DNA from: a virus
Taxonomy: Duplodnaviria > Heunggongvirae > Uroviricota > Caudoviricetes
Strand: one strand, 5' to 3'
IMG/VR virus record: IMGVR_UViG_3300031998_000026
Span: 51,528-115,527 of that record
DNA length: 64,000 nt
Shown here: one piece after another, positions 25,240 through 26,966 of the stretch
How positions within the stretch are numbered: the stretch's first letter is position 1
Layout: each line of letters starts with the position of its first letter
Notes under the pieces: generated by a model
Database searches by the model: none
Told to the model about the DNA's origin: nothing
What the model saw: the letters and a program-made list of their open reading frames with translations, nothing else
Made by a program: the position numbers and the translations under genes

Positions 25240-25463
25240 GCACAGGCTTAATCGTTGCGGTCGTGACGCTTGTCATCGTGGCCGCGATATACATGGCCTA
25301 TACGATGGGCGAGATATCGGAGATGCGCCGAGCATTGGAGCGTATCGAGCGCAGGCAGAAGCTGAGCGACATACCCACGGAAAGGCGGCCAGACATAGAG
25401 GTGCTGCCGTATGAGTCAGTCACCCCACGCATAAATGCGGGGGCTTGCAATAGCCCCGACTGA
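25236..25463 (+). CDS. Small membrane protein with C-terminus replaced by the IscB-element insertion
   Basis: TM helix LIVAVVTLVIVAAIYMAY; the ORF reads into the element left end at ...EVLPYE|SVTPRINAG. Confidence 0.4.
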   Translation: MSTGLIVAVVTLVIVAAIYMAYTMGEISEMRRALERIERRQKLSDIPTERRPDIEVLPYESVTPRINAGACNSPD

Positions 25464-25650
25464 CCAGCCTGAGTGCTTCGGGCACTACGTTGTCCGCGTC
25501 ATGGCACCCCGAGATGCCTCCTCAGTCTCGGGCTCTGCCGCCCGTCATTAAACAGCCCGCAGGGGTGTGGGCAGTGTGGCGGGCACGACAAGCGCGGACA
25601 ACATTGGCGAGAGGAACATTACCGCCCTTCTGGGCGAGGAGGTATTTATG
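25414..25650 (+). ncRNA. IscB omega-RNA scaffold; the guide would be the roughly 16 nt 5' of the left end
   Basis: About 235 nt structured non-coding stretch directly upstream of and overlapping the iscB start, conserved in the iscB-less copy at 11167-11400. Confidence 0.55.
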
Positions 25651-26955
25651 GTTTTCGTACTTGACACGAAGAAGAGACCTCAGCCGCCAGTACATCCGGC
25701 AGAGGCGAGGAAGCTCCTGAGGGACGGCAAGGCGGCCGTGTTCAGGAGGGTTCCGTTCACGATCATACTGAGGGAGGAGAGACCACCTGCTGAGAAGAGA
25801 TACAGAATCAAGATCGACTACGGCAGCAGGCACACGGGCCTCGCGCTGCTCGACGGGAGCGAGGTCGTGTGGCTCGGACAGATAGAGCACCGCACGAACA
25901 TCAAGAAGCTCATGGAGAAGCGCAGCGGCTACCGCAGGAGGCGCAGGAGTGCGAACCTGAGACACAGGAAGCCGCGCTTCGACAACCGCACGAGGCCGAG
26001 GGGATGGCTCCCGCCGTCCCTGGAGAGCCGCGTCGGCAACATCGAGACATGGGTCAGGCGGCTCTGTGCGCTCGCGCCAGTGGGCGCAATATCGTACGAG
26101 AACGTCAAGTTCGACACGCAGCTCATGCAGGATGACACGATAGAGGGCGTCCAGTACCAGCAGGGGACTCTGCAAGGCTACGAGGTGCGCGAGTACCTCT
26201 TGGAGAGACGTGGCCGGAGGTGCGCCTACTGCGGAAAGGAGAACGTCCCGCTCGAGATCGAGCACATCGTCCCGAGAAGCAGGGGCGGCTCGAGCAGGGT
26301 CAGCAACCTGACGCTCTCCTGCCACGAGTGCAACCAGGCCAAGGACGCCATGACCGCCGAGGAGTTCGGGCATCCCGAGGTCCAGAAGCAGGTCAAGAGC
26401 CCGCTCAGGGACGCGGCGATCGTCACCGCCACGAGGTGGAGGGTGTACGGCGCGCTCGTGGGCACCGGTCTTCCCGTCGAGTGCGGGACGGGCGGCAGGA
26501 CGAAGTACAACCGAACGAGGCTCGGCTTGCCGAAGGAGCACTACTACGACGCGTGCTGTGTCGGAGAGTCGACGCCCGACATGCTTGCAATTAAGACGGA
26601 CGAGGTCTTGGTGATCACAGCGAGGGGACGCGGGTCGCACTGCAGGACGAACGTCAACGCGTCTGGGTTCCCGAGGGGATACAGGGCACGGCAGAAACTG
26701 TTCTTCGGGCTCTCCACGGGTGACTACTGCAGGGCTGACGTCGGAAGCGGAAAGAAAGCCGGTACCTACGTCGGCAGAGTCCTTTGCAGGAAGACGGGTT
26801 CCTTCGACATAAACACTACGCAAGGGCGGGTCCAAGGCTTGAATCACAAGTGGTTCACCGCCCTGCAGAGGTCAGACGGATACGAATATCACACGGAGAG
26901 GAGGGGCGCCACTTCCTCCCCATGCCTAAAGGCAGGGGCTTCCGTGACGCAATGA
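25648..26955 (+). CDS. iscB: IscB RNA-guided nuclease (RuvC-HNH-RuvC)
   Basis: PLMP-like N-terminus MVFVLDTKKRPQPPVHPAEARKLL; RuvC-I IKIDYGSRHTGLALL; RuvC-II AISYENVKFD; HNH CAYCGKENVPLEIEHIVPRSRGGSSRVSNLTLSCHECNQAK; RuvC-III KEHYYDACCVG; GAGGAGG RBS. Confidence 0.85.
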   Translation: MVFVLDTKKRPQPPVHPAEARKLLRDGKAAVFRRVPFTIILREERPPAEKRYRIKIDYGSRHTGLALLDGSEVVWLGQIEHRTNIKKLMEKRSGYRRRRRSANLRHRKPRFDNRTRPRGWLPPSLESRVGNIETWVRRLCALAPVGAISYENVKFDTQLMQDDTIEGVQYQQGTLQGYEVREYLLERRGRRCAYCGKENVPLEIEHIVPRSRGGSSRVSNLTLSCHECNQAKDAMTAEEFGHPEVQKQVKSPLRDAAIVTATRWRVYGALVGTGLPVECGTGGRTKYNRTRLGLPKEHYYDACCVGESTPDMLAIKTDEVLVITARGRGSHCRTNVNASGFPRGYRARQKLFFGLSTGDYCRADVGSGKKAGTYVGRVLCRKTGSFDINTTQGRVQGLNHKWFTALQRSDGYEYHTERRGATSSPCLKAGASVTQ

Positions 26956-26966
26956 GGTGAGGTCGC

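Follow-up and report, generated by a model that had tools for sequence, protein, structure and literature searches.

IscB–omega-RNA elements are the presumed ancestors of Cas9. By the convention used for the transposase TnpA, the transposon end that carries the omega-RNA is the right end (RE), and the end downstream of iscB, which adjoins the target-adjacent motif (TAM), is the left end (LE) (PMC10055086). In ISGst5 of Geobacillus stearothermophilus, the omega-RNA is bounded by RE, and the TAM, TTCAT, is common to TnpA and IscB; in the iscB orientation it reads ATGAA (PMC10055086). A tnpA gene is found near approximately 1.5% of iscB genes, approximately 98.5% of iscB loci being non-autonomous (PMC10055086). 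The role demonstrated for IscB is to cut the empty donor site again, so that the transposon is not lost (PMC10055086; PMC13565253), and the homing of such OMEGA elements (obligate mobile element-guided activity) between phages was called theoretical in a 2026 review (PMC13565253). In the present work, a 64-kb stretch of Caudoviricetes phage DNA (positions 51,528 to 115,527 of IMG/VR record IMGVR_UViG_3300031998_000026; hereafter the window, in whose coordinates all positions are given) was analysed. At 25415–26956, it was found to carry an IscB-type (OMEGA system) member of the IS200/IS605 family that is intact and non-autonomous. As a whole, with the mechanism proposed below included, this explanation of the locus is considered quite probable.

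The locus was found to resemble ISGst5 in several respects. A HEARO-type omega-RNA precedes iscB and has RE at its 5′ edge, the guide comes from the RE flank, and the TAM lies on the LE side. The element is likewise non-autonomous and has subterminal hairpins and no target duplication, and ATGAA is close to the RTGA motif found here. In contrast to ISGst5, which is located on a bacterial chromosome, the present element is located in a phage; its protein is only distantly related, and its TAM is an inferred one. OgeuIscB and the other IscBs of the solved complexes (7utn, 7xht, 9k2z, 9k30) are also small, have no recognition (REC) lobe and align at the catalytic residues. The order of their parts is the same: PLMP/RRXRR, RuvC-I, bridge, RuvC-II, HNH, RuvC-III and a C-terminal TAM-interacting region. 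However, they are remote from the protein described here (E 1e-25 to 1e-42), and TbaIscB and HfmIscB have large N-terminal additions that it lacks. The TAM of OgeuIscB is NWRRNA (PMC12660989). The element is a well-characterised example of the IscB/HEARO group of IS200/IS605 and not a new kind of system.

The original prediction, which was made from the sequence without database searches, placed a complete IscB/omega-RNA OMEGA element without tnpA at the 3′ end of a phage gene. This was borne out by the protein family, the catalytic residues, the covariance-model score, the ends of independent copies and the existence of related phages with an empty allele. The positions of the features are collected in Table 1.

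Table 1. Positions of the IscB element, its parts and flanks, and the satellite element in the window
Feature	Position	Strand	Remarks
Whole IscB element	25415..26956	+	1,542 bp; RE at 25415, LE at 26956 (TnpA convention)
Upstream small membrane-protein gene	25236..25463	+	75 aa; native 60 codons end at 25415
Guide-encoding flank (predicted)	25399..25414	+	AGGTGCTGCCGTATGA; last 16 nt of upstream gene
Omega-RNA scaffold (HEARO)	25415..25622	+	Rfam RF02033, model 1–211 of 211
RE subterminal hairpin	25423..25443	+	CCCCACGCATAAATGCGGGGG; arms CCCCACGC-ATAAA-TGCGGGGG
iscB gene	25648..26955	+	435 aa plus stop; Pfam, structure and PHROG 2214 matches
LE structure	26906..26950	+	Outer stem GCGCCAC / GTGACGC (26906–26912, 26944–26950) around LE hairpin
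LE hairpin	26918..26938	+	CCCCATGCCTAAAGGCAGGGG; arms CCCCATGCC-TAAA-GGCAGGGG
TAM (putative)	26957..26961	+	GTGAG in iscB orientation, 18 nt past LE hairpin
14-nt extra unit	26957..26970 (equivalently 26961..26974)	+	GTGAGGTCGCATGA; absent from every sequenced empty allele
Downstream phage gene	26967..27302	+	111 aa; 67 homologue clusters
Satellite element without open reading frame (ORF)	11167..11503	+	337 bp; HEARO 11167–11376, LE hairpin 11465–11485
Satellite guide (predicted)	11151..11166	+	ACGGGCGAGGTAATAA
Satellite TAM (putative)	11504..11508	+	ATGAT, 18 nt past hairpin

IscB protein and omega-RNA

The iscB start codon lies 6 nt downstream of a GAGGAGG ribosome-binding site. The encoded protein matched the Pfam family RRXRR (PF14239) with residues 2–173, covering model positions 1–174 of 174 (E 5.7e-65); residue 2 was aligned with the first position of this model and with the N-termini of the solved IscBs. 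The Pfam domains HNH, HNH_5 and HNH_4 were found at residues 192–241, between RuvC-II and RuvC-III, and PHROG 2214 was matched from end to end (6e-114). The best solved-structure matches were all IscBs, namely, TbaIscB (3e-42), HfmIscB (1.5e-30) and OgeuIscB (7utn/7xht, 2.9e-25).

Alignment with OgeuIscB placed the RuvC residues at D57 in RuvC-I (IDYGS), E151 in RuvC-II (SYENV) and H298/D301 in RuvC-III (KEHYYD), the counterparts of the three motifs in 7utn being GIDPG, VLELN and DHYLDA. The HNH residues H206, N220 and N229 and the CxxC pairs 192/195 and 225/228 were also conserved. Thus, in the alignment with characterised IscBs that had been proposed as a check, all RuvC and HNH catalytic residues were present. 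The PLMP region reads RPQPPVHP (tetrapeptide QPPV) and was aligned with NPLMPTHP of TbaIscB. The gene had been described as a 436-aa IscB with RuvC motifs I–III, an HNH insert and a PLMP-like N-terminus; the identity and the motifs stood, and the length was corrected to 435 aa plus stop.

Approximately 20 C-terminal codons of iscB read through the LE hairpin. The same was observed in the 89% relatives, and in the 426-aa relatives IscB stops before this hairpin. The protein belongs to a cluster of 14 near-identical proteins, whose representative (P0085, 100% identical) was called from a start codon further upstream. The IscB family is very large, comprising more than 7,900 proteins at E < 1e-50. 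A HEARO RNA was found at all eleven loci of IMG/VR relatives with 50–63% identity, and the closest IscB loci elsewhere were also phage-like, one lying beside a portal gene (L158) and another beside genes for single-stranded DNA-binding protein (SSB) and MazG (L159). Cas9 of a type II CRISPR system was ruled out by the length of 435 aa and the lack of a REC lobe; no CRISPR-like repeat array was found in 20000–32000.

The original prediction had also proposed that the structured non-coding stretch upstream of iscB is an omega-RNA, and this was confirmed by a full-length covariance match to HEARO (RF02033; 175.9 bits, E 8e-38, gathering threshold 83) and by compensatory pair changes. The match begins with the first base of the transposon and ends 26 nt ahead of the iscB start codon on the same strand. 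Among 62 pairs predicted in an alignment of eight sequences, 34 stayed paired through changes on both sides. At the level of sequence, these compensatory stem differences between copies indicate continuing selection. Both this scaffold and that of the satellite element described below match the family model over its full length, with no notable difference. Some 3′ elements are known to be missing from the Rfam model (PMC10055086), which stops before the 3′ hairpin beside the iscB start. This short hairpin (25626–25642) overlaps the GAGGAGG ribosome-binding site of iscB, and the scaffold probably continues through it, up to 25642.

Ends of the element

Three independent copies of the element (L158, L204 and L205), with 88–89% nucleotide identity, were found at unrelated sites with unrelated flanks. 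The presence of the same element at these sites shows that transposition by some TnpA has also occurred. Homology among all copies starts at GTCA, and the preceding sequence is unrelated, which sets the RE edge at 25415; in L204, homology to the window begins at 25412, and the LE tail of this copy differs. The L205 contig, which was binned as a metagenome-assembled genome of the uncultured Erysipelotrichaceae RUG11122, a putative host of the phage, is homologous to window 25415–26960 (89% nucleotide identity) and diverges thereafter, and L158 has sequence in common with the element up to ...CAATG(G)AG GTGAG. More distant copies have the same GTCA start and the same RTGA end. Because RTGA is the last conserved sequence at a set distance past the hairpin, the LE edge was put at 26956. 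The span had originally been given as 25398–26960: all features were found within approximately 15 nt of their predicted positions, and the end was moved to 26956.

Other boundaries were considered and rejected. An end at 26951 with ATGAG as the TAM was ruled out by L158 and L205, which share sequence through ...AG GTGA. An end at 26970, which would give a clean 1,556-bp insertion, was ruled out since the hairpin and the cleavage site would then be 32 nt apart, compared with 17–19 nt in the further copies examined and 20 nt in L006, and also since L205 homology stops at 26960. Finally, a 17-nt target duplication flanking the element was ruled out because its GAGGTGAG part recurs in L158 at an unrelated site; therefore, GAGGTGAG is the LE end plus the TAM. 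The direct flanks of the element (...TATGA before it and GTGAG... after it) are not repeats of each other. Neither a target-site duplication nor terminal inverted repeats were found at the element, and the 14-nt duplication described below lies wholly on one side.

The presence of hairpins at both ends, as originally proposed, was confirmed. However, these are not mirror images but copies in the same orientation, as in IS200/IS605, and the left and right labels had to be exchanged to follow the TnpA convention, in which RE is at the omega-RNA and LE lies downstream of iscB (PMC10055086). The RE hairpin also contributes to the omega-RNA's 5′ domain. A degenerate hairpin pattern had four matches in the window versus 0.03 expected, the other two being in the satellite. 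Many IMG/VR copies, as well as the satellite, have outer stems similar in design to that at LE.

The exact 21-nt LE hairpin, CCCCATGCCTAAAGGCAGGGG, was found in at least 118 stretches of IMG/VR viral contigs (loci L037–L153). It sits in several distinct flanks, for example ...TTGACACT-hairpin-ATTC..., and thus delimits elements of more than one type. A search for the exact RE pattern, GTCAGTCACCCCACGCNTAAATGCGGGGGCTTG, gave no match in IMG/VR or in the Joint Genome Institute (JGI) metagenome collection. In the 88% copy L204 (4330–4400), a satellite-type LE tail (GCCGCACGAAATA) was observed, unpaired with the copy's own outer-stem partner GCGTCAC, which looks as if a full and a satellite element had recombined through their identical hairpin. 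In L007 (5700–5770), another LE hairpin with its tail is found immediately 5′ of the HEARO start (…GCGTAAGTTTCGTAG^GTCAAC; here and below, the caret marks a junction). This arrangement suggests a tandem or nested insertion beside the remnant of an older element.

The motif next to LE has the family consensus RTGA, i.e., TCAY on the top strand of the transposon, and was located, in almost every copy that was examined, 17–19 nt past the hairpin (20 nt in L006). It was ATGA at 18 nt in the satellite, GTGA at 19 nt in L158 and L205, GTGA at 19 or 20 nt in L001–L006, GTGA at 18 nt in L007 and ATGA in L159. GTGA(G) at 26957–26961 is accordingly named here as the putative TAM.

A search for a transposase was performed with IS608 TnpA (verified to be that of PDB 2a6m), using phmmer, and with a hidden Markov model of four solved TnpAs. 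No Y1 TnpA was found among the 524 six-frame segments of at least 70 aa in the window (best E > 1), in agreement with the original statement that no tnpA is present. Because no Y1 TnpA is encoded in the window, the element is non-autonomous; its membership in the IS200/IS605 family stands.

Insertion site, guide and empty alleles

The element is inserted at the end of a gene that encodes a small membrane protein. The 17 homologues found for this protein range from 59 to 67 aa, and most end in ...DIEVLPYE(D); the window copy keeps ...EVLPYE. The bases 25416–25463 are a 15-codon tail plus stop that is read from the element. Therefore, the C-terminus of the protein was not replaced, as had been supposed; the native 60 residues were kept, and 15 element-encoded residues were added.

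The last 16 nt of the native gene lie directly 5′ of HEARO model position 1, and homology between copies starts with the next base. From this position, AGGTGCTGCCGTATGA is predicted to be the 5′ guide of the omega-RNA; the guide had been expected in the roughly 16 nt 5′ of the scaffold and was placed at 25399–25414, with the scaffold starting at 25415. The guide was compared with 13 element-free loci that retain this gene end and matched at 16 of 16 positions in 12 of them (L024 and L026–L036) and at 15 of 16 in L025. In L025–L029, the match is followed by GTGAC, which gives a predicted target with its TAM; in L024 and L030–L036, it is followed by GGACT, without a TAM. The search for guide matches beside a TAM that had been suggested thus led to the uninterrupted allele of the same gene junction in related phages. 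No other occurrence of the 16-mer was found in the window at up to three mismatches, and the carrier genome has the element's own GTCAGT after the 16-mer. This layout of guide and TAM is what would be expected if an IscB–RNA complex aims at the element-free allele.

In L025–L029, the small gene is directly joined to a homologue of the 111-aa gene, with an 8-nt overlap between them (...GAGGTGCTGCCG(T/C)ATGAGTGACTGG...). These empty alleles may be written as ...GCCGTATGA^GTGACTGG. The empty junction is CCGTATGA^GTGACTGG, and the predicted excision joint is CCGTATGA^GTGAGGTCGC. In L024 and L030–L036, other modules come after the same gene end (...CCGTATGAGGACTAG...). Position 25414 was thus observed to be a mosaic boundary, where, in different phages, three downstream gene modules start no more than a few bases from the IscB target site. 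Megablast of 23500–29000 and 9800–13000 against 50,697 GenBank phages gave no match, and IMG/VR scans with the two flanking proteins gave no relatives. In addition, a direct repeat of 22–34 nt (…GCCGAGAACGNCAAGCTGCG…, coding AENxKLR) was found in five places across coiled-coil genes at 24306–25004, which indicates a small paralogous gene family just upstream of the insertion site.

Duplication at the downstream junction

The junction on the LE side was found to differ from that of the empty alleles. After the putative TAM, the window reads GTGA-GGTCGCATGA-GTGACTGG, compared with GTGACTGG in the empty alleles. The additional bases, GGTCGCATGAGTGA, repeat the junction TGCCGTATGAGTGA in tandem and in diverged form, with 11 of 14 positions matching. 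This duplication was absent from the original prediction.

A plain insertion at ATGA^GTGA would split the ATG of the 111-aa gene from its body, which would be left in frame past the iscB stop and without a start. The duplication provides the downstream gene with its own ATG (26967) behind the ribosome-binding site GAGGTGAGG. It can be inferred that the duplication is a compensatory or permissive change that arose before or after the insertion. Its origin by fill-in of a staggered IscB cut was ruled out because the unit includes the TAM, which is outside the cut interval. Together with the preceding bases, the duplicate forms a pseudo-target, AGGTGAGGTCGCATGA followed by GTGAC, with guide mismatches at positions 6, 7, 9 and 12; owing to these mismatches, it is predicted to escape cutting.

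The RTGA motif coincides with the ATGA/GTGA stop–start overlap of coupled genes. Therefore, the elements land at translationally coupled junctions and can break the downstream start. For annotation, it matters that the broken downstream start was restored here by a small duplication.

Satellite element without an open reading frame

A second, shorter element was found in the same window (Table 1). Its HEARO scored 141.9 bits over model positions 1–211 of 211 (threshold 83). The scaffold was 81% identical to that of the full element, the LE hairpin was identical at 21 of 21 positions, and approximately 90 nt separated the HEARO from the hairpin. A scan of metagenomes gave a locus (L179) without the satellite and with flanks 94–98% identical; relatives of the satellite-adjacent gene in IMG/VR were only approximately 52% identical. 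The L179 junction, ...GGTAATAA^GTGGATAGC, has a perfect guide match followed by GTGG, not RTGA.

Like PATE-like elements and stand-alone omega-RNAs (PMC10055086), the satellite keeps both ends and the omega-RNA, has no gene and has a flank-derived guide; unlike in those cases, 14 kb separate the satellite from its potential IscB provider within a single phage genome. The satellite would probably borrow the IscB encoded 14 kb away and supply it with a second guide.

Two genes upstream of the satellite, a gene for a free-standing HNH endonuclease was found (9920–10771, +; PHROG 374, 8e-73). It fills a stretch of approximately 915 bp (9846–10760) that is missing from L179, which is otherwise 87–98% identical, and it looks like a classical homing-endonuclease insertion.

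Proposed mechanism and alternative explanations

The following mechanism is proposed. Because no promoter-like site was predicted in 24300–27500 and the element lies on the strand of the operon, the RNA would be produced by read-through from the phage operon, its 5′ 16 nt, AGGTGCTGCCGTATGA, serving as a guide fused to the scaffold. IscB would bind this guide–scaffold RNA, and the complex would cut DNA in which the guide 16-mer is followed by the TAM GTGA. Such a target would exist only where the element is absent, either after its excision by TnpA acting in trans or in a co-infecting related phage; the carrier would be spared because its 16-mer is followed by GTCAGT. The break would be repaired by recombination from an element-bearing genome, possibly with the RecE-like exonuclease and SSB, and the element would thereby be restored or spread (homing). 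The 14-nt duplication would keep the downstream gene translatable.

In this respect, the element may be compared with other selfish nuclease genes, namely, the phage homing endonucleases (T4 Seg/Mob and intron-encoded) and the IS605-TnpB plasmid gene drive (PMC13565253). Like homing endonucleases, it is lodged between conserved phage genes and could convert the empty allele of a co-infecting relative, and filled and empty alleles coexist among relatives. The difference is that recognition is by the protein in homing endonucleases and would be by an RNA guide and a TAM here. It is tentatively suggested that the phage-borne IscB is a natural RNA-guided gene drive among co-infecting relatives with two guides, its own and that of the satellite. 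The relatives might then represent a snapshot, with susceptible alleles (L026–L029), a mismatch allele (L025), resistant TAM-less alleles carrying GGACT (L024, L030–L036) or, at the satellite site, GTGG (L179), and a carrier that repaired the loss of the downstream start codon by the 14-nt duplication.

Several points weigh against the proposed mechanism. There is no TnpA gene in the 64-kb window. The TAM was deduced from conservation next to LE and from likeness to ISGst5, and the close copy L204 has ATGT at this position. The sequenced empty alleles do not have the 14-nt duplication; hence, no exact progenitor is among them. What was established are the parts and their integrity, the ends, the empty alleles and the match of guide and TAM; transcription, RNA processing, assembly of the IscB–RNA complex, cleavage and homing are predictions.

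It is conceivable, if doubtful, that mobility depends mainly on TnpA supplied in trans and that IscB is only restorative, re-cutting the donor joint within one phage lineage. A restorative role has experimental support for IscB and TnpB (PMC10055086; PMC13565253), the exact LE hairpin in at least 118 IMG/VR stretches suggests a widespread cognate TnpA, and the 88–89% copies at three unrelated sites need transposition and not homing. However, the window lacks a TnpA gene, only approximately 1.5% of iscB genes are near tnpA (PMC10055086), and related phages have empty alleles that the guide matches perfectly beside a TAM, so that homing beyond restoration is at least possible. The restorative and spreading roles are not mutually exclusive.

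It is rather improbable that the nuclease is mainly a phage weapon that cuts competing relatives at a conserved junction (interference competition, marker exclusion), with copying of the element being incidental. A guide match was seen in 12 of the 13 element-free loci with this gene end, in three downstream contexts; phage homing endonucleases are known to act in this manner (PMC13565253), and the region also holds the free-standing HNH endonuclease gene absent from a close relative. Nevertheless, the TAM is present only in the GTGA alleles (L025–L029), and the GGACT alleles probably escape. Moreover, the guide is fixed by the landing site and not chosen, and the benefit to the phage is hypothetical.

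A dead relic, in which the ORF and the RNA were kept by chance or because of recent arrival, would explain the lack of tnpA, the LE flank rearranged by the 14-nt duplication and the IscB C-terminus that reads through the LE hairpin, unlike in the 426-aa relatives. This is very unlikely, since the ORF is uninterrupted with every catalytic residue conserved, the omega-RNA is full length and far above the threshold, the RNA stem changes are compensatory, and the read-through C-terminus is common to the 89% relatives. An ordinary protein-guided, free-standing HNH homing endonuclease with an incidental RNA-like stretch upstream, to which the PHROG 2214 and JGI annotations (HNH endonuclease or McrA) would point, can practically be dismissed: the protein has an RRXRR N-terminal region and a RuvC fold split by the HNH domain, its nearest structural relatives are IscB–omega-RNA complexes, and a full HEARO RNA is in the canonical position.

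With RNA-guided cutting of the element-free allele retained as the preferred explanation, the locus allows inter-phage RNA-guided homing to be tested. It offers an apparently functional element, an exact guide and a probable TAM, as well as natural empty alleles expected to be cleavable or resistant, a guide-only satellite and a repaired junction.

Phage context and other genes of the window

The window is phage DNA with densely packed genes, mostly on the + strand, from a phage of roughly 116 kb. The element lies in the replication/early-gene region, and the genes flanking it are on the same strand as the element. The window encodes SSB, a sliding clamp, RtcB, an RNA ligase, a DnaC-like loader, a methyltransferase and a phosphoadenosine phosphosulfate (PAPS) reductase; the gene for the RecE-like exonuclease is at 7624–8541.

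A gene for a 394-aa TnpB was found at 47951–49135 (−), with matches to Pfam OrfB_IS605, Cas12f1-like TNB and HTH_OrfB_IS605 and to PHROG 506. It represents a second OMEGA nuclease type in the same phage, and the hairpin of the IscB element is not shared with it. Ten tRNA genes were detected, nine of them clustered at 43947–44840 and one at 2613–2686. RtcB and the RNA ligase are encoded at 35933–38504, and with the tRNA genes they look like a phage module for tRNA supply and repair. Finally, a formate/nitrite transporter family protein (Pfam Form_Nir_trans, 2e-45) is encoded at 27299–27931 and is kept in L025; it is possible that this is an auxiliary metabolic gene.

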